64,000 bases of DNA, taken from the NCBI GenBank assembly GCA_965220325.1, contig OZ244821.1:4381924-4445923 (forward strand). Direction: 5' to 3'. Shown piece by piece: positions 1 through 14,671 of this stretch (its first letter is position 1; each line of letters opens with the position of its first letter). A program made the position numbers and the translations under genes. Origin of the DNA: Candidatus Poribacteria bacterium (lineage in GTDB: Bacteria; Poribacteria; WGA-4E; WGA-3G). A model generated the notes under the pieces. That model saw only the letters and a list, made by a program, of their open reading frames with translations, made no database searches and was not told the origin of the DNA.

Positions 1-488
1 GTTGCCATCTTGAAAGCGATTCGGAAGATATCCGGGTTTGCTTCTTCGTTTGCTTTCACAAGTTGGCTATGAAATGAATCGTTTCGCTGTTTGTTCTCAT
101 ATTCGTTGAGATAGATAGCAGTCTCCACGGCTTCACGTTGACAGAAATAGAGGCGTGGTTCATTTTCTGGATTGTTCCAATGCTCAAGGAGCCGCCGTGT
201 CGTTGGTGTTACACCGGGATAACCGCTCTGCCGCCACGCCGCCACCTGTGTCCGAACGCTGTTGATAAACGTGTTCGCCTCTCGGAGATCGCTATCGGGA
301 AGCTCAAATTGTAGTTGTGCTTCTCCTGACTGCTTTTTCGGTTTCGGAAACGGCATGAAGTATTCACTTCTGCGTCTACCGTCAGCAATCTCTTCGGTGA
401 TACCGCGGGCATTGAATTTGAAATGTCGTTTCGGTTCTTCAAACGGACTATTGATAACTGGGTTGTCTATGTTAACTTTTGCCATGTG
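1..488 (-). CDS. ResIII-type SF2 helicase / Type III restriction Res-subunit-like protein, N-terminal fragment (gene runs off window start)
   Basis: Minus-strand ATG at 486-488, only 9 nt after the stop of the PIN-like gene (497). Translation MAKVNIDNPVINSPFEEPKRHFKFNARGITEEIADGRRRSEYFMPFPKPKK...RLYFCQREAVETAIYLNEYENKQ...IAFKMAT stays open to position 1. It resembles N-termini of ResIII/Type III Res-like helicases (from memory). It is absent from the ORF track because there is no stop in the window. Confidence 0.4.
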
Positions 489-496
489 GATGCCTT

Positions 497-1048
497 TTAT
501 CTTCCTTTTGAATGCCGCCTTTTCTCGCGTCGTTCGTGTAAGTGACGGATGTTCTCCTCACAGATGAATTCAACTATCAAACCGTTCTCAACAAATAGTG
601 ATCGTAAAGGATACCATTGGCTATCTACTGATTGTAGGAGAGTCGCTTTTTGCTGATGGACATTCTCGTACACCACTGCTACGGCAATAAATTTTTGGTC
701 ATCTGAGTCGAAATCACTGAATACATCAGGGAGTTCTTCAAAACCCTTTTCACCCGTAGATGATGGTGTGATATGCACCTGCACACACTGCTCAGGATTT
801 TTATAATTGCGGATGAACCACTCCAAAAAGTGGCCACCTGCTCTATTATCTGTTGTTGAATTATTATCTTCAAGGTAGGTGTTATATTCATTGAGAATTA
901 TCCAATTATCGTCAATAACGACCTTTTCAGGCCCCTCAATAATTAAATCCAACCGCTCTTGGCACAATATTACACACTCGGGCCACGCTTGTTTGGACAT
1001 ACCCTTTGCAGCCAAAATAACATTTGTATCTACGACAACAGTGCTCAT
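497..1048 (-). CDS. PIN-like (possibly TOPRIM-like) Rossmann-fold nuclease candidate, paralog 1, 183 aa
   Basis: N-terminal MSTVVVDTNVILAA (hhhDTNhh is typical of PIN motif 1) and an acidic cluster DFDSDDQKFIAVAV. The start ATG overlaps the stop of the upstream ATPase (ATGA at 1045-1048). A diverged paralog lies at 2358-2885. Confidence 0.5.
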   Translation of the reverse strand: MSTVVVDTNVILAAKGMSKQAWPECVILCQERLDLIIEGPEKVVIDDNWIILNEYNTYLEDNNSTTDNRAGGHFLEWFIRNYKNPEQCVQVHITPSSTGEKGFEELPDVFSDFDSDDQKFIAVAVVYENVHQQKATLLQSVDSQWYPLRSLFVENGLIVEFICEENIRHLHERREKRRHSKGR

Positions 1049-2361
1049 TCACCCTCCGTTTCCTTCTGACGTTTCATCTGCTCACGTGTCATTTTAACAA
1101 GATCACCCCGGACATTACCAAAGAAGTCTGGTGGCCAATTTGTGATGTTGCCGAGCTCATCTACGCCTAATGATTTAATAGTAGAAACGCCGCTTTCGTT
1201 TTCACAAAAATAGAGTGCTGTATCACTTGCGGCAATCTTCTGTTCCGCGATGTGGAGTTGCAGACGCGTTAAGAGGTGTTCGCTGTGGCTCTCTATAAGA
1301 ATCTGGAGGTTCCGTTCGGTGATAGCTTCTATTAGCAGATCAGCAAAGTCGGCTTGCGCCTTCGGATGGAGGTGGATACCCGGCTGTTCTAAAATTAGCG
1401 TTGAACCTTCCGGGACATAGCAGCAATGCACCAACAAGGGAAACAGATCGGAGACTCCGTGCCCCATGTCTGCTAACGTGACCTCTGCACTGTTAGAAGT
1501 TGTTTGGAAGCGGACTTCGTAATTGTTATCGTCTAAGGAACCTTTGGGAACAAGTGAAAAGGAGTGAGCAAGTTCTAACTTTCGGAGCCATTTAGATATT
1601 CGCTCCTCAATTGAGACATTTTTTCCGTTGTGAGGGGTTGTTAATTGTCTGACGCGCGCGGAGAGTAACGCGTCAACGGCTTTATCGCCTTGCAGATCTA
1701 TCTCCTCCGGATGTGTCCTTTTCCAGTGATAGTGACGTTGTGGATGAACGCGAGTCGGACCGAGCGGATAGACGTTAGCAAATAGATTTTCAAACGCAGC
1801 GGAAAGCGGCGATAAAGATTGATCCGTTTCCCTTGCTCGGTGACCATAACAGTTTGTCCCGCCTATAATACCATGTGACTTCTTTCCATGGTAAAGTTTT
1901 CCATTTTGCCATCCTATCTTTTGAATAACCTCAGGGCCAACAGTGTAACAAAAACGCTCAATTGACAGCCCATGAGAGCCTCCTCGGATTGCAGTATCAA
2001 AAGTGAAACTATCAATATCCAACGGAGCCAGTTCATAATTTCCTATATGTTTGTTAATTTCTTGATAGGCTATGATATTTGACGGTTTCTTGAGTTTACA
2101 TCCAAACTCTAATTCGAGCAGTTCATTTTCTTTGTGTCCATGAATTACTTCACGGAAGCTGCCGAGATTGAGGAGTGATGTTTCGTCCCCAAAGAAGATA
2201 ACTTCTTCCCGCCCAATAGTCTGCTTTAGCAACAACAGCATTTGCAACAGGCTGCTCTTCCCAGAACTATTCGTCCCAAAGAAACCAGTCAGTGGAGCAA
2301 GTTTCACCTCACCGCTGTCTTTCCACGATTTGAAGTTTTTTACATGTATATGTGTAATCAT
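1045..2361 (-). CDS. ABC-type AAA_15/AAA_21-like ATPase with DUF3696-like C-terminus, copy 1, 438 aa
   Basis: Walker A GFFGTNSSGKSSLLQ at the N-terminus. Walker B / H-loop region near the C-terminus reads LILEQPGIHLHP...LQILIESHSEHLL, followed by the C-terminal NWPPDFFG motif. The start overlaps the stop of upstream PIN-like copy 2 (ATGA at 2358-2361). Confidence 0.7.
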   Translation of the reverse strand: MITHIHVKNFKSWKDSGEVKLAPLTGFFGTNSSGKSSLLQMLLLLKQTIGREEVIFFGDETSLLNLGSFREVIHGHKENELLELEFGCKLKKPSNIIAYQEINKHIGNYELAPLDIDSFTFDTAIRGGSHGLSIERFCYTVGPEVIQKIGWQNGKLYHGKKSHGIIGGTNCYGHRARETDQSLSPLSAAFENLFANVYPLGPTRVHPQRHYHWKRTHPEEIDLQGDKAVDALLSARVRQLTTPHNGKNVSIEERISKWLRKLELAHSFSLVPKGSLDDNNYEVRFQTTSNSAEVTLADMGHGVSDLFPLLVHCCYVPEGSTLILEQPGIHLHPKAQADFADLLIEAITERNLQILIESHSEHLLTRLQLHIAEQKIAASDTALYFCENESGVSTIKSLGVDELGNITNWPPDFFGNVRGDLVKMTREQMKRQKETEGE

Positions 2362-2885
2362 CTTTCTTTCCTTCCTTGGCGTGGACGTTGCATATCCTCC
2401 TTACAGATGAGGTTAACGCTAACTCCATGGTTTGCAAGCGCAGCCATAAATTGAAGCCATCCTCTATCTATCGCCAAGAGAATTGGCGGAGTTTGTCCAG
2501 TATCGCGTTTGTGTGCCAGAGCAACGGCAATGAATTTTCTGTCATCAGAATCAAAACTAATTAATACATTGTCATCGGGAAATTCTTCAAAATCAGTCCC
2601 ATTTCCAGCCAATGATGTAATATGTACCATTGTGCAGATCTCTGGGTTTCCAAGATTTTGTAGTAACCTTTTCACAAAGAGATCGCCAATGCCTTTTCGG
2701 GTGTTTGGACGCGTATTATCCTGGTACTCTCCCAAAATTCGCCTTTTGTTGTCAATAACCACCTTTTCATGTTGGTCAATAATTTGTTGAATTCGCTCTT
2801 GACAACGGTCTCTACAATCTTTACGTTTGTCATCTGTATCATTTGCGATCACAATAACGTTCGTATCTACAATAACAGCGTCCAT
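2358..2885 (-). CDS. PIN-like nuclease candidate, paralog 2, 175 aa
   Basis: MDAVIVDTNVIVIAND...ISFDSDDRKFIAVALA has the same motif architecture as the 497-1048 protein (about 40% identity by eye). The start ATG overlaps the TAA of the upstream ATPase by 1 nt (TAATG at 2883-2887). Confidence 0.5.
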   Translation of the reverse strand: MDAVIVDTNVIVIANDTDDKRKDCRDRCQERIQQIIDQHEKVVIDNKRRILGEYQDNTRPNTRKGIGDLFVKRLLQNLGNPEICTMVHITSLAGNGTDFEEFPDDNVLISFDSDDRKFIAVALAHKRDTGQTPPILLAIDRGWLQFMAALANHGVSVNLICKEDMQRPRQGRKER

Positions 2886-4234
2886 TAACCCTCCGCTCTC
2901 TTTTGACGTTCTCTTTGTGCTTCTGTCATAGCAAACAGATCTCCCATTTCGTCCCCAAAGAAATTTTCGGGCCAGTTCGCTATATTACCGAATTCATCCA
3001 TTTCTAACTTGTCAATTTCAGAAATACCTTCTTCATTACGGCAGAAATAGAGGGCAGTTTTATCAACGCTAATCTTTTCCTCAGCAATACGCCGCTGCAA
3101 CCGGTTTAAGAGGTGTTCGCTGTGGCTCTCCACCAAAATCTGAAGGTTGCGTTCCGTAATAACTTCTATCAGTAGGTCTGCAAGTTGGGATTGAACCTTC
3201 GGATGGAGATGCATGCCCGGTTGTTCCAAGATTAGTGTAGAACCCTCTGGAGCATAATAGCAATGCACTAACACTGGCAGAAATTGTGCTAACCCGTAAC
3301 CCATGTCAGCTAGCGTGACCTTCGCGCTATCAGGTGTCTTTTGAATAAGGACATCATAATCCCGATCTGTGCCTACACTACTCCGTTTAATAGAAAAGGC
3401 ATAACCAAGATCCATTTCTCGGAGCCACCAAGAGATTCGCTTCTCAATAGAGACATTTTTTCCTTCATAAGGCGTTGTTCGCTGATCCACGCGAGCGTTG
3501 AGTAGAGAGTCAATCATATTTTCGCCGCTTTGCCCGATGCTTTCAGGATGTGTTCCTTCCCAATGGTAGATACGTTTCGGTTGGACGCGAGTCGGACCGA
3601 GCGGATAGACGTGAGCAAATAGTCTCCTAAATTCAAATGCAAATCGGGTTATTGGATCGCGGCTTGGGTCAGGATGGTGGGATTGACCATAGATTTTTCC
3701 TGAGAAATTTCCCGTTATGACCTGCCCCTTATTTCCCGATTTAGTACGGGGACCAAAGACTATAGAAGGAGTGCTGAAATCACCGTTTACAACTTGCTCT
3801 TCATTTTCAGATTTAACGTGGTAATGACCTTTTTCAACAGAGACTCTGTTCTTTCTGCAAAAAATAGTAGCATTAAAGGTAAAACTCTCAACATTTAACG
3901 AAGCATCAATATAACCATTGAACTGATCACGGAGAGGGATAGTAAACGGCTCCTGGACCTTACATCCAAATTCCAACTCAAGCAAGGCATCTTCTTTATG
4001 CCCATGAATCACTTCACGGAAATTGCCGAGATTAACGAGAGATCCTTCATCACCGAAGAAGATAATTTCATTTAAATCTGGACGCTCTGCGGTCTGTTTA
4101 AGCAGCAGGAGCATCTGCAACAGGCTGCTCTTCCCAGAACTATTAGTCCCGAAAAAGCCTGTCAACGGTGCAAGTTTCACCTCGCCACTATCTTTCCACG
4201 ATTTGAAATTTTTCATCCGTATATGTGTAATCAT
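2885..4234 (-). CDS. ABC-type AAA_15/AAA_21-like ATPase with DUF3696-like C-terminus, copy 2, about 449 aa
   Basis: Start re-assigned to the ATG at 4232-4234 (MITHIRMKNFKSW, matching the paralog MITHIHVKNFKSW). It has a GGAGG Shine-Dalgarno 8 nt upstream; the ORF-track start at 4321 lacks an RBS. Walker A GTNSSGKSS; C-terminus LILEQPGMHLHP...ESHSEHLL...NWPENFFG. Confidence 0.7.
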   Translation of the reverse strand: MITHIRMKNFKSWKDSGEVKLAPLTGFFGTNSSGKSSLLQMLLLLKQTAERPDLNEIIFFGDEGSLVNLGNFREVIHGHKEDALLELEFGCKVQEPFTIPLRDQFNGYIDASLNVESFTFNATIFCRKNRVSVEKGHYHVKSENEEQVVNGDFSTPSIVFGPRTKSGNKGQVITGNFSGKIYGQSHHPDPSRDPITRFAFEFRRLFAHVYPLGPTRVQPKRIYHWEGTHPESIGQSGENMIDSLLNARVDQRTTPYEGKNVSIEKRISWWLREMDLGYAFSIKRSSVGTDRDYDVLIQKTPDSAKVTLADMGYGLAQFLPVLVHCYYAPEGSTLILEQPGMHLHPKVQSQLADLLIEVITERNLQILVESHSEHLLNRLQRRIAEEKISVDKTALYFCRNEEGISEIDKLEMDEFGNIANWPENFFGDEMGDLFAMTEAQRERQKRAEG

Positions 4235-4351
4235 TTTTTCTGCCTCCGTATTAACTCTATTATACGCAATTTCACGAGAAAATTCAAGCGGATCAATATA
4301 AAGTAGAACCAAGATCCACATCGAAAATTGAATGATCCTGAAATGAGATTT

Positions 4352-4381
4352 GACTTGTGTTGCAAATATATGCTATAATTT
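4352..4381 (+). promoter_or_regulatory. sigma-70-like promoter (TTGACT - 18 nt - TATAAT) for the Rpn-family gene, in the divergent intergenic region
   Basis: ttgacttgtgttgcaaatatatgctataat lies 24 nt upstream of the AAGGAAA RBS and the ATG at 4405. Confidence 0.4.
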
Positions 4382-4404
4382 GCTAAAATAGAAAAGGAAA
4401 TAGA

Positions 4405-5325
4405 ATGGCGATTTTTGATACCCTTACCAAAACGCAAGCACAAACACACCCCATGGACTTCGTCAATTACTGCCTAAACTTTGAGCAAGACGAGGCTACT
4501 TTCGTTGAATTGATCGTACCGGAGCAACCTACGGTTGAAATGCACCAGGCAGATATCGTCATCAAAGTAGAACGCAACGGTCAAGAGATTCTGGTCCATT
4601 TCGAGTTTCAAACCACCGACAGTTATGATCCTGAGATGTCTCTGAGGATGGCAGGTTATATCATTCGGTTGGTTGAAACGTATCGGTTGCCGGTGTATTC
4701 AAGTGTTATCTACCTTCGACCGGATGCGGGTCGAAGGGACCGTGGCGTTTATGTGCAGAACATAGCGGAACATCAGATTTTCATTGAATATAAGGTTTTT
4801 CGGCTCATTGAGATGGACGGGCAGCGGATCCTTGATGCCAAACCTACAGGATTGCTCCCTTTCACGCCGCTGATGAAACGTCCGGCGGGTGTAGATGCTG
4901 AGCAATGGCTGCGCCGGTGTATCCAAACCGCCGATAGCGTTGATGTCTCGAACAAACCAGCGTACCTCGGCACCTTGGCGGTTTTGGGAAATTTAGTCTA
5001 TGAATCGGAAGTAATTTCACGTATCATTTCGGAGGAAACCATGCAGCAACGTAATATTATTGAATACTGGACAGAGAAAGCCACAGCAGAAGCACACCAA
5101 CAAGGCCTCAAGCAAGGCCTCGAGCAAGGTATGAGAGAACGGGCCCTTGAAGACATTCTTGAAGCATTGGAACTCCGATTACAGCCCGATGCTGCGAGCA
5201 CCTTCAAGCCCATATTAGAAACGATTGAGGATTCCCAACGTCTCAAGCAGCTGTTTCGCGCCGCACTCTTAGCTGAAAGCACAGAAGACTTCGCACAGGT
5301 TTTAGCGGCAGACAGAGGTGTATAA
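4405..5325 (+). CDS. Rpn-family recombination-promoting nuclease / putative transposase (PD-(D/E)XK, Transposase_31/DUF4351-like)
   Basis: ADIVIKVE...ILVHFEFQTT gives the D...E-x-Q catalytic motif of the Rpn/YhgA family. The C-terminal QQGLKQGLEQGMRE repeat region is typical of DUF4351 tails. A good RBS (aaaaggaaataga) precedes the ATG. Confidence 0.65.
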   Translation: MAIFDTLTKTQAQTHPMDFVNYCLNFEQDEATFVELIVPEQPTVEMHQADIVIKVERNGQEILVHFEFQTTDSYDPEMSLRMAGYIIRLVETYRLPVYSSVIYLRPDAGRRDRGVYVQNIAEHQIFIEYKVFRLIEMDGQRILDAKPTGLLPFTPLMKRPAGVDAEQWLRRCIQTADSVDVSNKPAYLGTLAVLGNLVYESEVISRIISEETMQQRNIIEYWTEKATAEAHQQGLKQGLEQGMRERALEDILEALELRLQPDAASTFKPILETIEDSQRLKQLFRAALLAESTEDFAQVLAADRGV

Positions 5326-5378
5326 CTAATTATCCGTGTAATCCGAGCTTCAGACATTGCATAACCTGACAGGTTAGG

Positions 5379-8063
5379 CTACAAAATCTTATACTCTTTC
5401 ATCACCTCATCGCCGTAGTGATTGATGACTTTTACTGCGATTTTGCCGGTTTCAGGTTTTGCAAACGGTAGACTCTCTGTCCGATAAAGTGCTTCCCACG
5501 CCTCCGCGTCAATTTCCGAATTCAGGGCGCGCTTCAGCTGCTTATAAGGCTCATCCTCACCCGTGAAATAGGCATGTCGCACAAAAAACGCTTCACCGTT
5601 ATAAGCAGTATCAATGAACCAGCAAGCGATGTCTTCCGGTGTGTCGGAGCGGGTTAACCCCTGCTTTGGATCGTATACATCCACGCCCAAAAGTTTCACA
5701 GAGTGTGTCCCATCTTCATGATTCACAATCTCGACATCCGGTTCTCCAAACACCATGAACAGATTGCCTTGACCTGTGTTTTTAAGTTCGCGCACCATTA
5801 ACTCAGGACTCATCTTAACCGGTAGGATGGTAAGCCGTCCCATGCGTGTGTCCTCACCGGCGGTATAGCCTTCAAACGCAAAACCGGCAATAATGAGTAA
5901 ATCAAATCGCGGGGTTCGGCGCGCTGCTTCCTTCGCAGCCTCGTTTATCCACTGGCTACCCACAGTAATGGATTGGGGAGCGATACTAATAGCGACATTG
6001 GGCATATTGTTATCTGCATCGGTATACGCACCTTCTGCATGTAACCACTCACCGGGCAGTTCCTCCAACCAATCAAAGGTAATGCGCTGCCCCTGAAGGC
6101 GGTTTTGCACACCTCCTGTTTTCAGATGTTCAAGGATATGCTGGTGATAATCTTGTGAAACATCTGGGGCAGCAGGCGTTGGCGCAGCAGTCTCTGCATC
6201 AATAGAATCAAGCACGAAATGTGGCGATAAACTTTCTACAGTGAACGGACCTGTGACGCGAACCCGTTTTTTGTCTTCATGCGGTTGATCGTAGAGTATC
6301 TCTTTTTTTGCACGCCGTGCAGTTGAGGCATCCATGGCAAGTTGTCGTTCACGTTTGAGGTTGAGCCATTGACGATGTAAATTCTGGAATTCGGAGTCCC
6401 ATTCACTATCAGTCTCTGCTGGCACTTCCCACTCTTCCCAGTTTTGCCCCATGAGACGGTTCATTTCAGCACGCAGCGGATCCAGCTTTGCTGCATATTC
6501 GATATAGATGTCGTCAACCTCTGTGTTATTTGCCATGTCTGAGAGACTGATATCCGGGGCTGTTTTGTAAATAAAACCCTCCTTGATGTCGTCTGTATTT
6601 TCAAGACGATAGTAGGGATATTTGGCAGATATGAGGCGCGTACGTGCCAGTGCAAGTGCGACGCGTGAGGTATCTACTGTTATCCATCGTCTGCCCCACT
6701 GCTCTGCAACATAAGCAGTTGTGCCGCTACCACACGTCGGATCAAGCACGAGATCTCCAGGGTCCGTTGCCATGAGTACGCACCGTTGAATTACCTTAGG
6801 GTGAGTCTCTACAACGTACTTTCTTCCAGAACGACCTCCTGCTGTATCTATCCATAGGTTAGTAATCGGGTTCCCTGGTGAATCAACTGCATATCGGATA
6901 TAACGCAAGGCACTTCTTTTTCCAGTAAGTCTTTCCTGCTTTGCAAGTCGATTTAAACCTTCATTGCTCGCACTCCACGTTCTGGAACCAGGTGGAGTAA
7001 AAGTTTTTCCTTGAAATTCATATTCATCAGCATAACCTTGAGAACTCTGTGACGATACTGAAAGGTTTATAAATCTTCTGCTTCCTGGTGGCAAAAGCCC
7101 TGGATTTTCTTGCTCATCCCTTGTCATTCCACGCCTCGTTCCGTTTTCTAACTCAACCTGGGTGTAAGATTTAAGCAGAGGATCAGCTATGCGTTCATCC
7201 CATTCCATCCAAAGTTGTCGATACTTCACCATTTCCTTGTCTTTCGCATACCATAGGATATAATCTGATACTGACGCTAAGGAGGTAGATGAAGTCATAT
7301 TCGTACGAGTCCATGTAATTGTAGAGATAAAATTATTATCTCCGAAGATTTCATCTAATAAGCATCTAACACGGTGAACGTTCTCATCGCTAATCTGAAT
7401 AAAGATACTGCCGCTATCCGTTAGCAATTCACGGGCAACAGTAAGGCGATCGCGTAAATAAGCAAGGTAAGAATGGATGCCGAGTTCCCATGTATCTCGA
7501 AATGCTTTAACCTGTTCTGGTTGTGGTGTAACATCTTCTGCACCAGTATCACCAACTTCATTTTTGCGAGTGCTGACCTGCCAATTGCTGCTGAATTTAA
7601 TCCCGTACGGCGGATCAAAATAGATTATCTGCACCGCACCTTTGAGATGTTCTTTTTCGGCAAGCGAGTTCATCGCCGTAAGTGAATCACCTAAGATAAA
7701 ACGGTTGTGCCAGTTTTGTTCGTGTTCGTAGAATTCGATTTTTTGGTTGAAATCAAGACCGTCGAAACCTTCAAAGAGCAACTCTATCTGCTCTGATTCT
7801 CGCCGCTTTTGTGCGCGAAGGTTTTCAATAATCGCTTGGGGTTGGATATGTTCTTGCGTGTAGATAGGTACGGCTGGCACTTCAAGATCGCTATCGTTCT
7901 GTTGGTCCTTGCCTTTCCAGACGAGTTGCGGGTCAAGTGCTACGTCGCGCGGGTAACGGGTGGGTGCGTTTTCTTCATCTTCAGCGAATCCGCTTAATTC
8001 TTGGGTCGGGTTGTTCGGAAGTGTGTCAGGGTGTTCGTAATGGTCAATCGGTTTTTTCGGCAT
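5379..8063 (-). CDS. Beta-class N6-adenine/N4-cytosine DNA methyltransferase (Type III Mod-like), ~894 aa, with a C-terminal domain of unknown function
   Basis: Motif IV IIYFDPPYG lies about 290 aa before motif I TCGSGTTAYVAEQWGRRWITVD, the beta-class order with an intervening target-recognition domain as in Type III Mod. Start re-assigned to the ATG at 8061-8063 (MPKKPIDHY), which has an AAGGAG RBS; the ORF-track start at 8213 has none. Confidence 0.75.
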   Translation of the reverse strand: MPKKPIDHYEHPDTLPNNPTQELSGFAEDEENAPTRYPRDVALDPQLVWKGKDQQNDSDLEVPAVPIYTQEHIQPQAIIENLRAQKRRESEQIELLFEGFDGLDFNQKIEFYEHEQNWHNRFILGDSLTAMNSLAEKEHLKGAVQIIYFDPPYGIKFSSNWQVSTRKNEVGDTGAEDVTPQPEQVKAFRDTWELGIHSYLAYLRDRLTVARELLTDSGSIFIQISDENVHRVRCLLDEIFGDNNFISTITWTRTNMTSSTSLASVSDYILWYAKDKEMVKYRQLWMEWDERIADPLLKSYTQVELENGTRRGMTRDEQENPGLLPPGSRRFINLSVSSQSSQGYADEYEFQGKTFTPPGSRTWSASNEGLNRLAKQERLTGKRSALRYIRYAVDSPGNPITNLWIDTAGGRSGRKYVVETHPKVIQRCVLMATDPGDLVLDPTCGSGTTAYVAEQWGRRWITVDTSRVALALARTRLISAKYPYYRLENTDDIKEGFIYKTAPDISLSDMANNTEVDDIYIEYAAKLDPLRAEMNRLMGQNWEEWEVPAETDSEWDSEFQNLHRQWLNLKRERQLAMDASTARRAKKEILYDQPHEDKKRVRVTGPFTVESLSPHFVLDSIDAETAAPTPAAPDVSQDYHQHILEHLKTGGVQNRLQGQRITFDWLEELPGEWLHAEGAYTDADNNMPNVAISIAPQSITVGSQWINEAAKEAARRTPRFDLLIIAGFAFEGYTAGEDTRMGRLTILPVKMSPELMVRELKNTGQGNLFMVFGEPDVEIVNHEDGTHSVKLLGVDVYDPKQGLTRSDTPEDIACWFIDTAYNGEAFFVRHAYFTGEDEPYKQLKRALNSEIDAEAWEALYRTESLPFAKPETGKIAVKVINHYGDEVMKEYKIL

Positions 8064-8142
8064 AGAATCTCCTTTGCTGTTGGCTAAAGATGATGCCTCA
8101 TTTTTTTCGTGAATGCTTGCGAATCTAAATACGTTGGTAGAT

Positions 8143-8520
8143 TCATGGGCGGACGATCTGTTGTTGTTTGAGTGCTTCGATTTCTTGTGTGAGTGTCTCA
8201 ATCTGTTTTTCAAGAGTCTGATCTTTTCTGCTACGCCTGCTTGCTAAGATGCCCCACACTGTTGCACCGATGGCAAGAATCGCTAAAGGGATACCAATGC
8301 AAGCGATAATGATGTTATTGAGTCTGTCGAAATTCTTTTCAAGGCTCGCAAATTTGTCGTCAACTCCCTGAAATTTGTCGTCAATCTTTTCATTTAGATT
8401 CTTAATTTCGGTTTTTATCACCGCGATTTCGGTCTCTACATCCATCTGTGGTGTTTGACAGAGTGCTGGAAACCCAGCGATAGCACCTAAAAGTAGTGAA
8501 AGTGCAAGAACATATTTCAT
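8143..8520 (-). CDS. Hypothetical secreted/membrane-anchored coiled-coil protein
   Basis: Start at the ATG at 8518-8520 (MKYVLALSLLLGAIAGFPALC signal peptide) with an AAGGAG RBS. Central coiled coil; C-terminal TM helix IIIACIGIPLAILAIGATVWGILA. Confidence 0.4.
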   Translation of the reverse strand: MKYVLALSLLLGAIAGFPALCQTPQMDVETEIAVIKTEIKNLNEKIDDKFQGVDDKFASLEKNFDRLNNIIIACIGIPLAILAIGATVWGILASRRSRKDQTLEKQIETLTQEIEALKQQQIVRP

Positions 8521-8576
8521 CAAATGTCTCCTTTTAGAAAGAGTCAATCACATTTGCTTTTGTGTGGCAAAAAATG

Positions 8577-8858
8577 CTAGCGTGTAATGCACACCCTACG
8601 GGGGTTGAAGAAACGGGAAAATTGCTGCGTCTCCCACACAATAGATCCGATGTCGCTGCCTTTGTTACGATTACAATATGAACACGCGTAAGCGAGATTA
8701 CTTTCTTGGGTAGAGCCTCCATGTTTCTCGCTAAGAATGTGATCTATCTGACAACCAAAGTAAGTATCCTCTTCACGAATCAGACAGTATTCACAAAGGC
8801 TTTTGGCGCGGGCCCTAACCAACTCTCGTAAGGCAACGGGGATATAAGTCTTACTCAT
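8577..8858 (-). CDS. HNH endonuclease (small, 93 aa)
   Basis: CEYC...CQIDHILSEKHGG...NLAYACSYCNRNK carries the HNH and zinc-ligand motifs. Confidence 0.7.
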   Translation of the reverse strand: MSKTYIPVALRELVRARAKSLCEYCLIREEDTYFGCQIDHILSEKHGGSTQESNLAYACSYCNRNKGSDIGSIVWETQQFSRFFNPRRVCITR

Positions 8859-9093
8859 TTTTTAAATAGTATCGAGCGCGAGATTTAGCGAGCCGCATCA
8901 GATGTTCAAGTTGCAAACAGTGATTGAGTTCTGCTGTTTCTTCAGAGGTTAGTCCTGTCGTCTTTTCGCGGTGGATGAGATCTGAAAGACGCTCTTTTGC
9001 CGCCTCGGATGGACAAAAGTCTATTAAATTTTGCGGGGTTGTCCCTGCTGCAATAAAATCAACGATTTCTTGATATGCAGGTGATATGTACAT
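8851..9093 (-). CDS. Small conserved hypothetical protein, likely partner of the HNH endonuclease (overlaps its start by 8 nt)
   Basis: 80-aa helical protein (MYISPAYQEIVDFIAAG...LEHLMRLAKSRA). The 8-nt overlap with the HNH gene suggests a two-gene module. Confidence 0.4.
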   Translation of the reverse strand: MYISPAYQEIVDFIAAGTTPQNLIDFCPSEAAKERLSDLIHREKTTGLTSEETAELNHCLQLEHLMRLAKSRARYYLKNE

Positions 9094-9110
9094 TGAATTC
9101 TCCTTATATG

Positions 9111-9524
9111 TTACAGCTGATCTTCAATCCATTCATCGTCGTGGGCAGGATTATAGATGAGCCCCTTTTTAATATCGAGACAGAGATCCAGGTATTCCAG
9201 GACCATGTGTCCGACAAGGACAGGCAGCCCGGCCGGTAGATCCGCCACTTCCATCGTCCCCTCCCGTTCTAAGACGGTATATCGGACATCTGAATAAACT
9301 GTCCGCGTAACGATACCGTTTGTGGTCTGTGCCCTTCTACTTCTAACGGGAGTCAAGCCGAGTTGTTCGATAAGCGGCTTCGGTAAGGATAATCCAGTCG
9401 CACCGGTATCAACAATCGCGTCTTCAACGGTCACTTGCCGGATATCCTCAGGTTTAATAACACCAGCTTCAGCTAAAAACTGATCTTTTCGATTTGCGAG
9501 TTCTATTTTTGTTGTGTGTTTCAT
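9111..9524 (-). CDS. Retropepsin-like (clan AA) aspartic protease
   Basis: AIVDTGATGLSLP is the classic D-T/S-G-A active-site motif; about 137 aa. Confidence 0.6.
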   Translation of the reverse strand: MKHTTKIELANRKDQFLAEAGVIKPEDIRQVTVEDAIVDTGATGLSLPKPLIEQLGLTPVRSRRAQTTNGIVTRTVYSDVRYTVLEREGTMEVADLPAGLPVLVGHMVLEYLDLCLDIKKGLIYNPAHDDEWIEDQL

Positions 9525-9592
9525 TTTTTTTCCCTCAGTTTACGATAAAATTCTTTGTGACATAGCATATGCTGCTGGCTAAAGATGATACC

Positions 9593-9775
9593 TCATTCTT
9601 TCAAGCGTTCAAGTTCCGCTTGGAGTCGCGCGACTTCTGCTTCTGCGCTCTCCGCGCGTGCTTTCGCGATCTCCATCGGCGTTTGGAGCCACTGCTCCCT
9701 AACCGGATCGTAAACCTCTAAACGCCTTTCACGGATATGGAAATCTAAACCGAAATATACACAATAGTGTAGCAA
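9593..9775 (-). pseudogene. Possible remnant of an Uma2-family (DUF820) endonuclease C-terminus
   Basis: The 60-aa ORF ends LEVYDPVREQWLQTPMEIAKARAESAEAEVARLQAELERLKE, which resembles the conserved C-terminal tail of cyanobacterial Uma2 proteins. No upstream domain is present. Confidence 0.2.
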
Positions 9776-9835
9776 AAAAAAACGCCGCTGTCAAATTTAA
9801 TTTTTAAGGAACCTTCCTTATTTTTACTTTACTAA

Positions 9836-10060
9836 AGTTTAGACAATTTTAAGAGGTCCAAGGTTTTTGATCGGATACGCTCTTTTGTACCATAGGAGAC
9901 CGTTGGTTTCCTGTGGTCTCTTTGTACCATAGGCTGTATGAAGATTAAATAAATATTTCGGTAATCGTTGAAGATCGCGAGCGCAGCTCGCTCCTACCAA
10001 GAGGCTATTGATACATTACCGAATTAAATTCTGAAACTTCATTTAGCCTGTGGCAGTGAT
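9836..10060. repeat. Dispersed intergenic repeat, copy A (shares blocks with 58005-58090), with an internal duplication
   Basis: Shared blocks actaaagttt(a/g)gacaattttaa, ctcttttgta(c/g)cataggctgt and tagcctgtggca. ctcttttgtaccatagg occurs twice in copy A, and gatcggatacgctc recurs at 9871 and 10059. Confidence 0.5.
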
Positions 10061-10300
10061 CGGATACGCTCTAACGCTGCCAAAATATTTACACACTCAA
10101 AATAAAAAATAAATTTGCATCTCTACATTATATATGTTATCATATACATACTAATTGAATTATATTAATCTCAAGAAAAAAAGATAAAAACAACCCTTCA
10201 CCCACACAAAGGAGCACAAAACGTAGACTCGGTTAAAACGAAACTATGACTTCTGGTAGGAGCGAGTGTTTTTGCTGGGGTGTTTCTTGTCGCTCGCGAT
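9971..10300. repeat. Imperfect terminal inverted repeats bounding a ~330-bp AT-rich non-coding element (MITE-like)
   Basis: The left arm gatcgcgagcgcagctcgctcctaccaaga (9971-10000) is the reverse complement, with a few mismatches, of the right arm tctggtaggagcgagtg...cgctcgcgatc (10251-10300). Confidence 0.4.
10115..10143 (+). promoter_or_regulatory. Orphan sigma-70-like promoter (TTGCAT - 17 nt - TATCAT) inside the non-coding island
   Basis: ttgcatctctacattatatatgttatcat; no annotated ORF lies downstream before the terminator at 10358-10387. Confidence 0.3.
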
Positions 10301-10357
10301 CTGTACTTTTGCCTAACGACTCAGAGTCACCCCAAACGCAAATCGAAAATCGCAAAT

Positions 10358-10387
10358 CGAAAATGTTACACTTTTCGCCTTTTTTTT
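10358..10387 (+). terminator. Rho-independent terminator-like hairpin (weak AU-rich stem) plus T8 tract
   Basis: cgaaaa tgttacac ttttcg cc tttttttt; together with the promoter at 10115 it would delimit a ~230-nt transcript. Confidence 0.3.
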
Positions 10388-10463
10388 CAAATACGAAACC
10401 ATAACACAATTACCTCTGAACCCTTACAATGACTAAGTTTATCGCAATATTCTATCCATACCC

Positions 10464-10487
10464 AATGTTACACTGGTGTAACATTTT
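10464..10487. promoter_or_regulatory. Perfect palindrome AATGTTACAC-TG-GTGTAACATT (candidate operator; the half-site also occurs in the terminator loop at 10362)
   Basis: The 10-bp arms are exact reverse complements. The motif AATGTTACAC occurs three times within 130 bp. Confidence 0.35.
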
Positions 10488-10883
10488 AAGCACAGATGCA
10501 CTGCCTCTTAAAGTCCCTGATAACCTGACACCTGCGATCACAACCGGAACCTGAAACGCCCGAACTTGAACCAATAGACCCTAATCCATCGCAGAAAAAA
10601 ATATAACGCAAATTTTTGCGTACAAAAAAAATTAAAGTGCCTTTAGGACAAAAATCACAGCAGCCGAACGCATCCATGTTGAAATTGTTATACTTGAACA
10701 GGAGGCTAAATTCTGATAGAATATCTCCTAAGCAGGAAAGAAGAGGCATTTTTACATTCCTTTCAAAACACTTCTACGTTTTTATGAAAGGATGCCTCTT
10801 TTCTGCTTGTTGTCATCTTAATTCGTAAAATTGTCCAAACTATAGTACCAATTGCGAAAACACAACTGAAAAGGAGACACACA

Positions 10884-11147
10884 TTGGAAAAAATACGCGG
10901 ATTGATTTCTCTATTGGAATCTGGCGTTGAAGACTATGACGCGCAGGTAAAGGTTCTCCAGTCAGAACGCCTGAAATATATCCGGCTCTCTATAACGGAC
11001 GGGTTCGGCACGGAAGAAGGCGACTCTAAACAGTCGTGGCTACTTCACCTCAAGCAACTCGAAGATTCACTCGCCCTGAGACGGAAAACCATACGACAGG
11101 CAGTTGTAGATACCGCAGAAGATATTCAGAAAGAGGAAAACGCATAA
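10884..11147 (+). CDS. Small hypothetical helical protein (87 aa, TTG start) translationally coupled to the downstream CRTAC1-like gene
   Basis: AAGGAG (10871-10876) lies 7 nt before the TTG at 10884. The stop TAA overlaps the ATG of the next gene (TAATG at 11145-11149). Confidence 0.45.
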   Translation: MEKIRGLISLLESGVEDYDAQVKVLQSERLKYIRLSITDGFGTEEGDSKQSWLLHLKQLEDSLALRRKTIRQAVVDTAEDIQKEENA

Positions 11148-14100
11148 TGTTGAAATTTCTGTCTCCAAGTATAGAAAAGTGTTTGAAGTATATCCTGCTG
11201 TTGGTATCGTGTTTTGCTGCCCCAATAGGATGGACGCAAGAGACAGATAACAGCAGAATTATTGAAGAAGCGATCCGGCACCAGAATTTAGGGTTGGCAT
11301 ACCTGGAGGAGTCACAGCCCTCAAAAGCAGTCGAGGAATTTACGACGCTTATTGAACTGCTCCCCAACGAAGCGATCGGTTATGGAAACCTTGCTGTCGC
11401 GCACTTACGTCTACAACAGGCAGACACCGCTGAAGAATGGGTGAAACGCGGCATCGCTGTCGCGCCGATGGATAGCCGGTTACATTTCATCTTGTCCGAA
11501 GTCTACCAACTGCAAGACGGAAAAACGAATTTAGCCGTAGAAGCGATGAAGGAAGCTGTTCGGTTGGACGCCGATGAATTAGAATTTCGCTACAAACTGG
11601 TGCGTCACTACCTTGGACGCCGAAACGACCCGGAAGCACAGCGGGAGGCTGTCCGGCATCTTCAAGAACTGCATGCCCGATCACCGGTGAATATCGTTGT
11701 GCTGATGAAGTTGACACTCGGATTGTTAGCGCAGGAGGACCTCGAAGCTGCTGGAGACCTCTGTCAAGACCTAATGCTCCTTTTAGGCGATACCGACCCA
11801 GACAAACTCAAATATCTTACACAAGGAATAGAAGCAATAGCACAAGGTGACCTAAAACTCGCTACACGAAATATAAAAATTTTCGAGAACGTAAATCGGG
11901 CAAGTCCCCGTTATCAGCAGGGTATCGGCGAATTGGTGACCGACATCCTTGGGCATCCGATAGAGACATTCAGTCCAGGGTTTCGCGCGCGAATCATCGC
12001 TAAAGAGAGCCTACCGATTGAAGTGGAATTTGTGGATGTTACTGAACAACTTGGACTTGCCGATGTGAATCCGCCTTTAGATTTCAAGACACCCGTTGCT
12101 GTCATTCTTATGGACCACGATAATGACGGGGATCTGGATCTGCATATAGTCGCGGCGAACGGTTTTGAGTTGTATCGAAATATAGGAAACCAGTTTGAGC
12201 CTATTAACACATACGTAGCGGACGAAGACACCCATATCATTGTTGCGGATTTAAATAAGGATGGCATACAGGATTATTTATTCCAAAGTGTTAAGGGAAT
12301 CGGGCATATATGGAGGGATACGGAAGGGAATGAAGGGGCATCTGACCTCATCATATATAAAAATCCCAGAACTGAGATAGGGATCCTTCATCCTGTCGAT
12401 TATGATCACGATGGCGATCTGGACCTCTTTACAACCGGTACCACGATGTATCGGAATAATAGCGATGATAAAAATAAAGGGGACGAAAGGTTTACCGATG
12501 TTAGTGAACAGGCTTTTGTAAAAACAGCCGCGCCACAATCCGTACCTGCCGAAGCATTCTCCGCTGATTTTGATGACGATGGCGATATAGATATTTTTAC
12601 GATACACCGCGAAACCGGATGTACCCTTTACGATAACCTCCGTCAAGGGAAACTTCGCGCGATTTCCGATGAGACAGGAATTCACCAGGATATGCATTAC
12701 ACGGCAGCTGCTATCGGTGATTATGACAACGATGGCGACATTGATATCTTCTTAGCAACAGCAGCTCGTATGCACCTCTACCTTAATAGAGGCGACGGAA
12801 GTTTTGTAGACGACCCACGCTTAGAGGCGGATGTACAAGGTATATCCCCTACACTCTTAAAAAACATAGATTACGATAACGACGGATTTGTTGACCTCTG
12901 GGTGAGTGGTGAAGATGGGATGTTTCTGTTCCGAAACGACGGAACCGGGCAGTTCATGGAACCGTATCCGCTAATAGAAACTGGCACACCAACGGAGGGA
13001 GCGATCCTCCACAAGGCAACCGCTGGAGCCGTAGGCGATTATGACAATGACGGCGACCTTGACCTCTTTTTTATCAACCTCAAAGGAGAACTTCGAGCAT
13101 TACAAAACAATGGTGGCAATCGAAATAAATGGATACAGGTGCGATTGGAAGGTATCACTACTGGAAACAATAAAGTCAATAGGGACGGCATCGGCTCGAA
13201 ACTGGAGGTGAAAGTCGGTGATCTGTATCAACTACAATATGTATCCGAACAGGTCTCCCATTTCGGGTTAGGCGCGTTTGACAAGGCGGATATTGTTCGT
13301 GTTGTCTGGACGAACGGCGTGCCGCAGAACGTCATCGAACCGCAAGCGAAACAACGGATTCTGGAGAAACAGATACTCAAAGGTTCCTGTCCGTTCTTAT
13401 ACGTCTACGATGGAGAGAAATACGAATTCGTTACTGACTTGCTCTGGCGCGCACCTTTGGGGCTTGTCACTTCAATGGGGTTCGTTGCTCCTGATGAAAC
13501 GCGGGACTTCGTGAAGATTTCCGGGACACAGATACAACCGAAAGATGGTAAGTATTCCATTCAGATTACCGAGGAGTTATGGGAAACCGCCTATTTTGAC
13601 GAGGTGAAACTGATCGCGGTGGACCACCCAGTAGGTACTGACATCTTCGTAAATGAGCAGTATGTTCCGCCGCCGTTTGCCGAATTCAAGGTTTACGGGG
13701 TCAAGGAGAAGCTGCACCCGAAATCCGCACGCAACCATCGGGGTGAAGATGTATCCGATGCTTTAAGAACGTCTGATTACCACTACGCCGTTGAACACGC
13801 ACCCGGTCCCTATCAAGGGGTCGTTGAACCGCATGCAATAGTTCTTGATCTCGGTGATGTACCGAATGATACGCCTGTGACGCTGTTCCTCACCGGCTGG
13901 ATTTTCCCGACGGATACGAGTATCAATGTTGCCCTGTTCCAAAACAGCGAAATTAATCCGAGTTTTCCGTCGGTTGCTGTAAAAGATAAAACAGGAGCGT
14001 GGGAAACCGTGATTGATATGATTGGGCTGCCGGCGGGGAAAAACAAGACGATTACCGTCGATCTAACGGGCAAATTTCTGTCGGATGACCGACACGTCCG

Positions 14101-14671
14101 AATTGAAACCGATATGCAGATTTACTGGGACGCAGCGTTTTTCACTGTCGGCAGGCAAGACGTACCGATAGAGATGACGACGTTGAACCCAGATAGCGCG
14201 GATCTGCACTACCGCGGCTTTTCGGAGATGTATCGTCCAAACGCACACGCGCCGCACCTGTTCAACTACCAAAAAGTGACGACCGATGCCCAATGGCGCG
14301 ATCTGGCAGGTTATTATACGCGCTACGGAGATGTCAATCCGCTGTTACAAGAGGTTGATGATATGTATGTAATCCTTAATGCTGGCGATGAAATCACGGT
14401 TGAGTTTGATGCCTCACGCTTGCCGGTACTAAAACCTGGATGGGCTCGCGATTTTATTCTCTATAGCGACGGATGGGACAAAGATGGCGACATCAATACG
14501 CTCACCTCGCAGACAGTTGAACCGCTGCCGTTTCACGGGATGTCTGCCTATCCGTATCCAGACACTGAGCATTATCCAGATAGCGAAGCGCATCGCCGGT
14601 ATCGGCTTGAATATAATACCCGACGCGTGGAGCACCGTTTACCGCTATTATCGACAGAAGTAAAACCATGA
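11147..14671 (+). CDS. Secreted TPR + FG-GAP/VCBS repeat + ASPIC/UnbV domain protein (CRTAC1 family), ~1174 aa
   Basis: Start at 11147 (MLKFLSPSIEKCLKYILLLVSCFAAPIGWTQE signal peptide), in frame with the ORF-track 11036 start. TPR helices precede six FG-GAP/VCBS calcium loops (DHDNDGDLDL, DYDHDGDLDL, DFDDDGDIDI, DYDNDGDIDI, DYDNDGFVDL, DYDNDGDLDL). The UnbV/ASPIC core follows (GSKLEVKVGDLYQ...HFGLGAFDKADIVRVVWTNG). Confidence 0.8.
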   Translation: MLKFLSPSIEKCLKYILLLVSCFAAPIGWTQETDNSRIIEEAIRHQNLGLAYLEESQPSKAVEEFTTLIELLPNEAIGYGNLAVAHLRLQQADTAEEWVKRGIAVAPMDSRLHFILSEVYQLQDGKTNLAVEAMKEAVRLDADELEFRYKLVRHYLGRRNDPEAQREAVRHLQELHARSPVNIVVLMKLTLGLLAQEDLEAAGDLCQDLMLLLGDTDPDKLKYLTQGIEAIAQGDLKLATRNIKIFENVNRASPRYQQGIGELVTDILGHPIETFSPGFRARIIAKESLPIEVEFVDVTEQLGLADVNPPLDFKTPVAVILMDHDNDGDLDLHIVAANGFELYRNIGNQFEPINTYVADEDTHIIVADLNKDGIQDYLFQSVKGIGHIWRDTEGNEGASDLIIYKNPRTEIGILHPVDYDHDGDLDLFTTGTTMYRNNSDDKNKGDERFTDVSEQAFVKTAAPQSVPAEAFSADFDDDGDIDIFTIHRETGCTLYDNLRQGKLRAISDETGIHQDMHYTAAAIGDYDNDGDIDIFLATAARMHLYLNRGDGSFVDDPRLEADVQGISPTLLKNIDYDNDGFVDLWVSGEDGMFLFRNDGTGQFMEPYPLIETGTPTEGAILHKATAGAVGDYDNDGDLDLFFINLKGELRALQNNGGNRNKWIQVRLEGITTGNNKVNRDGIGSKLEVKVGDLYQLQYVSEQVSHFGLGAFDKADIVRVVWTNGVPQNVIEPQAKQRILEKQILKGSCPFLYVYDGEKYEFVTDLLWRAPLGLVTSMGFVAPDETRDFVKISGTQIQPKDGKYSIQITEELWETAYFDEVKLIAVDHPVGTDIFVNEQYVPPPFAEFKVYGVKEKLHPKSARNHRGEDVSDALRTSDYHYAVEHAPGPYQGVVEPHAIVLDLGDVPNDTPVTLFLTGWIFPTDTSINVALFQNSEINPSFPSVAVKDKTGAWETVIDMIGLPAGKNKTITVDLTGKFLSDDRHVRIETDMQIYWDAAFFTVGRQDVPIEMTTLNPDSADLHYRGFSEMYRPNAHAPHLFNYQKVTTDAQWRDLAGYYTRYGDVNPLLQEVDDMYVILNAGDEITVEFDASRLPVLKPGWARDFILYSDGWDKDGDINTLTSQTVEPLPFHGMSAYPYPDTEHYPDSEAHRRYRLEYNTRRVEHRLPLLSTEVKP

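Follow-up and report, generated by a model that had tools for sequence, protein, structure and literature searches.

Why do a methyltransferase gene (mod) and a helicase-type restriction gene (res) that look like partners lie almost 5 kb apart, with two ATPase–PIN cassettes and an opposite-strand gene between them? The question arises in a 64,000-nt stretch of a Candidatus Poribacteria genome (GenBank assembly GCA_965220325.1, contig OZ244821.1, positions 4,381,924 to 4,445,923; hereafter the window). A note made from its letters alone (the original prediction) had offered two answers: a canonical Type III restriction–modification (R-M) locus invaded by the other genes, or a composite system with the logic of DISARM or BREX. 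Our analysis supports a modified form of the first. The locus is probably a Type III-like R-M pair whose mod–res slot has become a docking place for defence genes and mobile genes that are independent of the pair, rather than a new composite machine.

All of the predicted genes were found, essentially at the positions given, and the predicted spacing of 4.9 kb was measured as 4,893 bp between the stop of mod (5379) and the start of res (485). In a classical Type III system, mod and res are adjacent and co-oriented in one operon; here, these 4,893 bp and an opposite-strand gene lie between them. Six genes are co-oriented on the minus strand and one open reading frame (ORF) is on the plus strand, as follows.

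8063→5379, minus strand: mod, 894 amino acids (aa), from the ORF listing and translation
4405–5325, plus strand: Rpn-like ORF, 306 aa
4234→2885, minus strand: ATPase1 (HEC-03 ATPase copy 1), 449 aa from its MITHI start
2885→2358, minus strand: PIN1 (HEC-03 PIN copy 1), 175 aa
2361→1045, minus strand: ATPase2 (HEC-03 ATPase copy 2), 438 aa
1048→497, minus strand: PIN2 (HEC-03 PIN copy 2), 183 aa
485→1, minus strand: 5′ end of res, the first 161 codons; the gene continues past the window edge

The start of ATPase1 was placed at 4234, and not at the longest-ORF start of 4321 (probably too long), because its paralogue and all of its orthologues begin with MITHI.

We characterized both halves of the R-M pair by profile and homologue searches, and we compared 166 related loci (numbered here with the prefix L). 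Mod is a beta-class N6/N4 DNA methyltransferase whose start (MPKKPIDHY) is aligned from residue 1 by its homologues, and its residues 144–471 match PF01555 (E = 5e-35). It has the arrangement that identifies a Type III Mod: DPPY (aa 150–153) lies N-terminal to motif I (DPTCGSGTT, aa 441–449), and the ~288 aa between them hold a putative target recognition domain (TRD), with its core at the most variable stretch of the conservation profile (aa ~331–390). The nearest solved structures are the Type III Mods 6k0w and 4zcf (EcoP15I), the EcoP15I Mod matching at E = 1.7e-15. The PADLOC model MTase_III PDLC03632 matches Mod over its whole length (E = 3.8e-255), and the homologue search returned 8,000 candidates at E ≤ 1e-20, of which the best 120 are 68–91% identical. 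The original prediction had the gene (5379-8063), the motif order and the motif gap right, and it underestimated the C-terminal region beyond ~residue 480, which spans ~415 aa (aa ~480–894) rather than ~370 aa. This extension contains no Pfam domain and is conserved across the family, as PDLC03632 covers it. An AlphaFold model from a 10-sequence alignment was unusable (pLDDT 35). From its family and motifs, Mod is predicted to methylate a target sequence.

Res was assigned mainly through its orthologues, as only 161 aa are encoded in the window, ending with FKMA just before helicase motif I. The helicase gene is on the same strand as mod, as predicted, but its ATG is at 485 rather than 488 (485–483 encode M and 488–486 encode H). 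The fragment matches positions 1–160 of the 970-residue profile NF046055 in NCBIfam (BPTD_3080 family restriction endonuclease) with 163.7 bits and E = 5e-48, a score for a window-edge fragment against a cut-off of 800 bits. Full-length orthologues at the same position in relatives (994–1010 aa) reach 1052–1208 bits against that cut-off, including those of L001, L006 and L014 (998–1003 aa, 1052–1082 bits). Across 16 aligned orthologues, GSGKT, DEAH, SAT and QxxGRxxR are invariant, as is a C-terminal block, P918-D919…E941…K950/K953, that reads E-V-S…K where the textbook motif is E-x-K. The orthologues are BPTD_3080 restriction endonucleases and not generic DEAD-box helicases, a concern that the original prediction had raised.

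The proposed check for Type III Res features gave a divided answer. Helicase motifs and a C-terminal PD…E…K block are present in the orthologues, but the classical Type III Res model PRK15483 is unmatched (19–24 bits, cut-off 564), and PADLOC REase_III gives only partial matches (E = 8e-7). In a search of PDB sequences, no relative was returned for the single Res sequence and no significant match for the profile. Res thus belongs to a separate family, NF046055 (BPTD_3080), at ~22 bits against PRK15483, and the canonical Type III host of the original prediction has to be given up. Because Res lies outside the EcoP1/EcoP15 Res family, we name the pair Type III-like, and not Type III. A search with the 161-aa fragment returned short partial proteins only, an exact-sequence look-up of the PIN2 protein in public assemblies, aimed at extending res, returned no record, and a literature search for 'BPTD_3080' found none.

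The genes between the pair form two ATPase–PIN cassettes. By family membership, the two are paralogous versions of the HEC-03 system, which is made up of two genes and is self-contained in its action against phages. ATPase1 matches the PADLOC HEC-03 ATPase profile PDLC04148 at E = 2e-109 (aa 30–473 of the long ORF against profile positions 1–452 of 458) and ATPase2 at E = 2.6e-100, while PIN1 and PIN2 match the HEC-03 PIN profile PDLC04147 at E = 3e-23 and E = 2.4e-25, respectively (Pfam PIN_3 is weak for PIN1; the A and B labels that PADLOC gives to HEC-03 are reversed relative to the preprint text). Each cassette has a full-length ATPase match, an adjoining co-oriented PIN gene and intact catalytic residues, namely those of Walker A/B and the H-loop in the ATPase and the acidic D-E-D-D set in the PIN. 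The ATPases are ABC-type proteins with Pfam AAA_15, AAA_21 and DUF3696 domains and an NsnB match (E = 2e-65). Among 28 homologues, their Walker A motif GTNSSGKS, LILEQPG-HLHP and ESHSEH are conserved in at least 93–97%, and the acidic PIN residues D7, E53, D115 and D140 in at least 93%. In published experiments, a HEC-03 representative cut the plaquing of at least two phages on E. coli by orders of magnitude, with both genes needed, and HEC-03 was found embedded in Hma systems (bioRxiv 10.1101/2024.01.29.577857).

The two copies have diverged far, most of all in one region. ATPase1 and ATPase2 are 57% identical overall, with ~85–93% identity in the first ~90 aa, 17–33% across aa ~90–215 and 55–80% beyond; PIN1 and PIN2 are 36% identical. 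The ATPases are old paralogues. Gene conversion between their N-termini was considered and ruled out, as the first 48 codons differ by 19 synonymous and 2 non-synonymous changes. The same pattern extends to 28 ATPases of the clade, where mean pairwise identity drops to 0.26 in the insert (aa 89–215), against 0.77 on its N-terminal side and 0.74 on its C-terminal side, and the insert falls into 18 types. These hypervariable types agree with a published proposal in which the specificity of these ABC ATPases is set by Insert-1/2 (HEC-03 paper, bioRxiv 10.1101/2024.01.29.577857). The PINs form six identity clusters, of which four recur, and their position is regular, one type always being the copy that adjoins res.

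We next consider whether the R-M pair and the cassettes depend on each other. One genome per species was scanned with the Mod alignment, which gave 80 loci whose ORFs were called and classified by phmmer. The close relatives (68–87% Mod identity) are nearly all metagenome-assembled genomes of Candidatus Poribacteria with the gene order mod→res. Of 21 Poribacteria genome loci of this clade, 17 pair Mod with Res, and three of the other four are on contigs that end too near Mod to tell. The fourth, L018 (9959-22485), has an orphan Mod (71% identical); the genes that come after it encode cold-shock-domain, RecJ, RelA/SpoT and glycosyltransferase proteins, and there is no Res within 10 kb. An orphan methyltransferase in relatives, which the original prediction had named as evidence against a pair, therefore exists once, against 17 loci in which the pairing holds. 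Across these 17 loci, the number of cassettes between mod and res varies from zero to three.

0 cassettes: L014 (52 bp between mod and res); L011 and L020 (slot filled by other genes); L010 (an ATPase remnant only)
1 cassette: L004, L005 and L012
2 cassettes: L001, L002, L003, L006, L009, L013, L015, L016 and L082
3 cassettes: L007

The window has two cassettes and the metagenome locus L087 has one, while L019 has a cassette upstream of mod. In L014, the pair is adjacent with no cassette, which is the outcome that the proposed synteny comparison sought. The converse is found in L090 (7771-11695), where one intact ATPase–PIN pair is present without mod or res. Its flanks, with ThiF/rhodanese at one end and an ABC permease at the opposite end, are common to L003, L009 and L012 at 75–85% DNA identity, showing that this is the same chromosomal slot.

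The slot also takes other genes. An uncharacterized family of 388–437 aa lies directly upstream of res in L004 (15143-16309), L010 (5785-6951) and L011 (13302-14615); its L011 member has no significant Pfam or PADLOC match and its L004 member no Pfam match, and we count it among the candidates for new embedded defence genes. A ~310-aa WD40 beta-propeller protein is encoded within the slot in L003 (13084-14013), L009 (15387-16325) and L010 (3906-4850), an IS200/Y1-type transposase in L020 (13099-13647), and a DDE transposase, splitting a PIN gene, in L015 (16259-17422, minus strand).

Outside this clade, we found 53 loci of the R-M family in many bacterial phyla and two methanogens (49–55% Mod identity), with the order res→mod. 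In 14 of the 53, the two genes are adjacent (<100 bp), and in 35 they are separated by 0.5–4.7 kb. The typed inserts include GmrSD/HEC-05/06-like genes, an OLD/Gabija-like ATPase, DUF5131 with GMT-wHTH (PDC-M30/M41), PDC-S39, PDC-S01, PDC-S13 (Bro-N), MNT/HepT and PIN_12. The Poribacteria clade has the order mod→res (compare L001-L020 with L021-L083), and a single genome of that phylum, L036 (54% identity), is of the res→mod type.

Conversely, when metagenomes of JGI were scanned with the ATPase alignment, ~50 ATPase–PIN pairs (36–49% identity) were located on contigs without a detected Mod or Res of this family. Twelve have 9-kb flanks on both sides, and the neighbours, typed at six of these, are mostly housekeeping genes. 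Free-standing pairs are also present on plasmids of Aeromonas (L084 7001-9629), Azotobacter (L085 7001-9619) and Rhodococcus (L086 6989-9551), where each pair of DUF3696 ATPase and PIN is followed by a gene for an 'RNA ligase family protein'. This neighbour hints that the PIN targets RNA; no such gene occurs in the window or in any other fetched locus.

The R-M pair and the cassette are therefore each found intact without the other, and the slot accepts unrelated defence genes, which argues for independent embedded modules and against an obligate composite. Of the invasion first proposed, the varying cassette number (zero to three), L014, L090 and stand-alone HEC-03 all support embedding of separate genes, but neither the canonical Type III host nor a one-off event stands. 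The cassettes are old, conserved and diversifying occupants of the slot in this clade, and only the Rpn-like unit looks recent.

4295..5333, no strand assigned: Rpn-like mobile unit, ~1.04 kb, in the mod–cassette intergenic region

This unit is 96.2% identical to positions 12788–13814 of L006, whose Rpn-like gene is at the same place as in the window and whose layout is otherwise the same and intact, while the flanking genes are ~79–85% identical. It looks recent because of this 96% identity against ~82% in the flanks. In L001, L002 and L005 the unit is absent and the two flanks are ~64 bp apart. The junctions differ between the window and L006. The identity contrast and the differing junctions together indicate, from sequence comparison, that the unit was recently mobile and inserted independently in both genomes. 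Its ends have no convincing terminal inverted or direct repeats.

The protein that the unit encodes had been assigned to the Rpn family. Its opposite-strand position between mod and the cassettes was correctly described, but it scores 16.7 bits (E = 0.005) against TIGR01784, below the cut-off of 52.1 bits. In its own family, 12 of 19 members match that model (best E = 1e-8), residues D50, E67 and Q69 are invariant, and JGI labels one homologue 'predicted transposase YdaD'. The AlphaFold2 model (pLDDT 63) has an alpha-beta-beta-beta-alpha-beta core of the PD-(D/E)xK type. Because the window protein falls below the TIGR01784 cut-off, this PD-(D/E)xK, COG5464-like gene is a distant relative of Rpn, and we label it Rpn-like and not a member.

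Beside the Rpn-like junction, a 55-bp stretch at the mod 3′ end (window 5332-5386) recurs with 89% identity at an unrelated second place, L006 5116-5170. This stretch could represent a short repeat or a target sequence.

The genes on the res side of the unit are tightly joined. The stop and start codons overlap at ATPase1/PIN1 (TAATG), PIN1/ATPase2 (ATGA) and ATPase2/PIN2 (ATGA), and PIN2 and res are separated by 11 nt, so that ATPase1–PIN1–ATPase2–PIN2–res forms one translationally coupled string. One promoter-like site lies before the Rpn-like gene and another before ATPase1.

4350–4379, plus strand: Rpn-side promoter-like site TTGACT-18-TATAAT, 11 of 12 matches with a TG extension, a consensus match only
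4287→4259, minus strand: ATPase1-side promoter-like site TTGAAT-17-TATAAT, a consensus match; the ATG at 4234 is preceded by the ribosome-binding site GGAGG

The region holds four such sites, not above the shuffled expectation of 2.1±1.8. Consequently, the near-consensus promoter that had been noted for the Rpn gene is present as a sequence, but sites of this kind are no more frequent than by chance. The 29-nt minus-strand motif is identical at the same place in L002, L004, L005 and L006, against a background identity of ~82%. From this conservation, the cassette string and res probably have their own promoter. A promoter here matters because the opposite-strand Rpn-like insertion severs the cassettes and res from mod.

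These observations suggest how the locus could work. Mod would mark self DNA by methylating its target sequence, and Res, recruited by Mod, would use ATP and cut unmethylated invading DNA. Each ABC ATPase may bind its PIN partner through the C-terminal DUF3696 helix, by analogy with the NsnB/NsnC model of Menshen and with the HEC-03 paper, and may sense an infection cue through its hypervariable Insert-1. It would then release or activate the PIN nuclease, probably an RNase, and phage growth would stop, possibly at the cell's cost. Embedding would provide co-transcription and co-inheritance. As the string is translationally coupled behind a conserved promoter-like motif, embedding is best read as co-expression, and not as mechanistic dependence. 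Inserted in that slot against the direction of the other genes, the recently mobile Rpn-like unit of ~1 kb separates mod transcriptionally from the rest.

Several points weigh against an R-M pair with independent passengers. Only 161 aa of Res lie in the window, and its intactness is read from orthologues whose nuclease motif departs from the textbook form. Cassettes are kept between mod and res, coupled to res, in 13 of the 17 Poribacteria loci, which would also fit a functional partnership. The promoter calls follow a sigma-70-type consensus that may not apply to Poribacteria, the activity of every component is deduced from homology and motifs, and the PIN target could be RNA or DNA, although an RNase is the probable reading.

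A functional partnership could take the form of a guard, as with PrrC and EcoprrI: the cassettes would stay silent while Mod and Res are intact and would fire when an anti-restriction protein disables or mimics the R-M enzyme. The cassettes are tightly operonic with res and persist between mod and res in most Poribacteria relatives, and their ATPases are related to AriA of PARIS (E~1e-25). PARIS is triggered by the anti-restriction protein Ocr. The presence of two or three diversified copies would fit a sensor repertoire, and a guard array can be imagined where each ATPase insert recognizes a different phage anti-restriction factor, or a disabled Mod/Res complex, and sets its PIN nuclease free, as a multi-sensor PrrC/PARIS-like back-up in the res operon. 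For ABC-ATPase systems that are embedded, PrrC is brought up as a precedent by the HEC-03 authors themselves, but in their experiments HEC-03 defended E. coli without a cognate R-M system (bioRxiv 10.1101/2024.01.29.577857). Likewise, L090 keeps an intact cassette after the loss of mod and res, and most family members, in metagenomes and on plasmids, are not beside this R-M family. A guard of the simple kind is unlikely on this evidence, and we give the array version the same low probability.

A closer dependence, with methyltransferase, ATPases, PINs and helicase as one DISARM/BREX/MANTIS-like machine whose ATPases might load the methyltransferase or license Res, would account for six co-oriented genes, four or five of them translationally coupled, in a layout present in at least nine relatives. 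MANTIS provides the precedent, since ATPases can be required for methylation in BREX-related systems (bioRxiv 10.64898/2026.09.23.753747), but the MANTIS ATPases are of the AAA+ type and those of the window are ABC-type. PADLOC matches were listed in full for Res and the PINs and as the best 25 for Mod and the ATPases. Among these listed matches, no Hma, BREX, DISARM or Gao_RL component appeared, the best being MTase_III for Mod, HEC-03 for the ATPases and a weak REase_III for Res. The signature components of the Hma, BREX, DISARM and MANTIS systems (HmaA-C; PglZ/BrxC/PglX; DrmA-C; MtsA-D) were not detected among them. Zero to three cassettes accompany otherwise orthologous mod and res genes, the pair is adjacent with nothing between in L014 and in 14 loci of other phyla, and unrelated defence genes fill the same slot elsewhere. 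An obligate composite is largely refuted by L014 and L090, leaving the DISARM/BREX-like half of the original prediction very improbable. The insertions might instead be breaking the pair, with mod becoming an orphan methyltransferase and res being silenced. The Rpn-like insertion does uncouple mod from the downstream genes, L018 has its orphan Mod, and L010 and L015 hold cassette fragments with a DDE transposase. Decay of this kind is nevertheless hardly to be expected in the window, where all ORFs are intact with conserved catalytic motifs, the res 5′ end is 91–92% identical in DNA to those of L004 and L005, the conserved promoter-like motif upstream of ATPase1 could drive res independently, and the same Rpn-bearing layout is intact in L006. 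The Type III-like pair with a slot open to independent genes remains the explanation that we favour.

Other features surround the locus. Upstream (5′) of mod, on the minus strand, are a 93-aa HNH endonuclease ORF (window 8577-8858), an 80-aa ORF that overlaps it (8851-9093) and a 137-aa retropepsin-like aspartyl protease (9111-9524). L011 has a comparable aspartyl-protease-like ORF inside its mod–res slot (12728–13186). No Rfam family was found in window positions 1–11000 and no tRNA in 1–16000.

For annotation, the split mod and res are to be read as an R-M pair with two known anti-phage modules and a mobile gene, and not as a composite system or as two orphans. The known hosts of embedding are joined by a widespread Type III-like family, present in many bacterial phyla and in methanogenic archaea. 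The PADLOC Type III Res models barely detect the BPTD_3080 Res, and therefore genes embedded there have probably been overlooked. The Poribacteria loci also provide a natural experiment, as zero to three cassettes with 18 ATPase insert types could be used to map HEC-03 specificity.

We compared the locus to the known systems that it most resembles. As in classical Type III enzymes (EcoP1I/EcoP15I), this is a two-gene system with a beta-class Mod, motif IV before motif I and a TRD between, and a ~1000-aa Res that, in the orthologues, combines an SF2 DEAH helicase with a C-terminal PD-(D/E)xK-like region. Unlike them, it has a distinct Res family (22 bits against the PRK15483 cut-off of 564, with no PDB relative by sequence), a ~415-aa extra Mod C-terminus, an E-V-S…K nuclease motif and, in most phyla, the order res–mod. 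In the classical systems an asymmetric site is hemimethylated, and cutting requires ATP and two unmethylated sites in inverse orientation. Menshen (NsnABC) shares the NsnB-like ATPase (AAA_15 and DUF3696 helix, E = 2e-65) with a PIN-fold partner, and there the NsnB DUF3696 helix is predicted to bind the NsnC PIN-like domain (PMC12065111). The cassettes here differ in having no NsnA (ParB-DUF262) sensor, with no DUF262 gene in window positions 1–8100, and in having a stand-alone PIN of ~175 aa that keeps the acidic D-E-D-D residues, whereas NsnC is an inactive PIN fused to a toxin domain. PrrC in the Type Ic R-M system EcoprrI is likewise an ABC-ATPase-based RNase-type effector nested in an R-M operon, but it is a single polypeptide controlled by the R-M enzyme, while the cassette here survives without R-M genes (L090).

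The closest precedent is the study of defence-system embedding in Hma, BREX, DISARM and Type I R-M systems (Payne, Hughes, Fineran & Jackson, bioRxiv 10.1101/2024.01.29.577857). Embedding and HEC-03 are both already described there, and this locus is another instance of a known habit. The same HEC-03 protein families are involved (PADLOC E-values of 1e-100 and 1e-25), and the proportion of occupied loci, 35 of 53 here, is close to the 62.7% given for Hma. The host is different, being a Type III-like BPTD_3080 R-M pair; the cassettes are in tandem arrays of zero to three diversified copies; and an opposite-strand Rpn-like element is present, whereas 96.7% of the embedded genes in that study are co-oriented with their host. 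The BPTD_3080 R-M family is almost certainly a major embedding host that had not been surveyed before, and its slot contains several uncharacterized families. Three aspects appear to be undescribed: the use of this Type III-like family as an embedding host, the presence of embedded genes in about two thirds of its loci, and the Poribacteria series of zero to three tandem cassettes whose ATPases carry a hypervariable insert.

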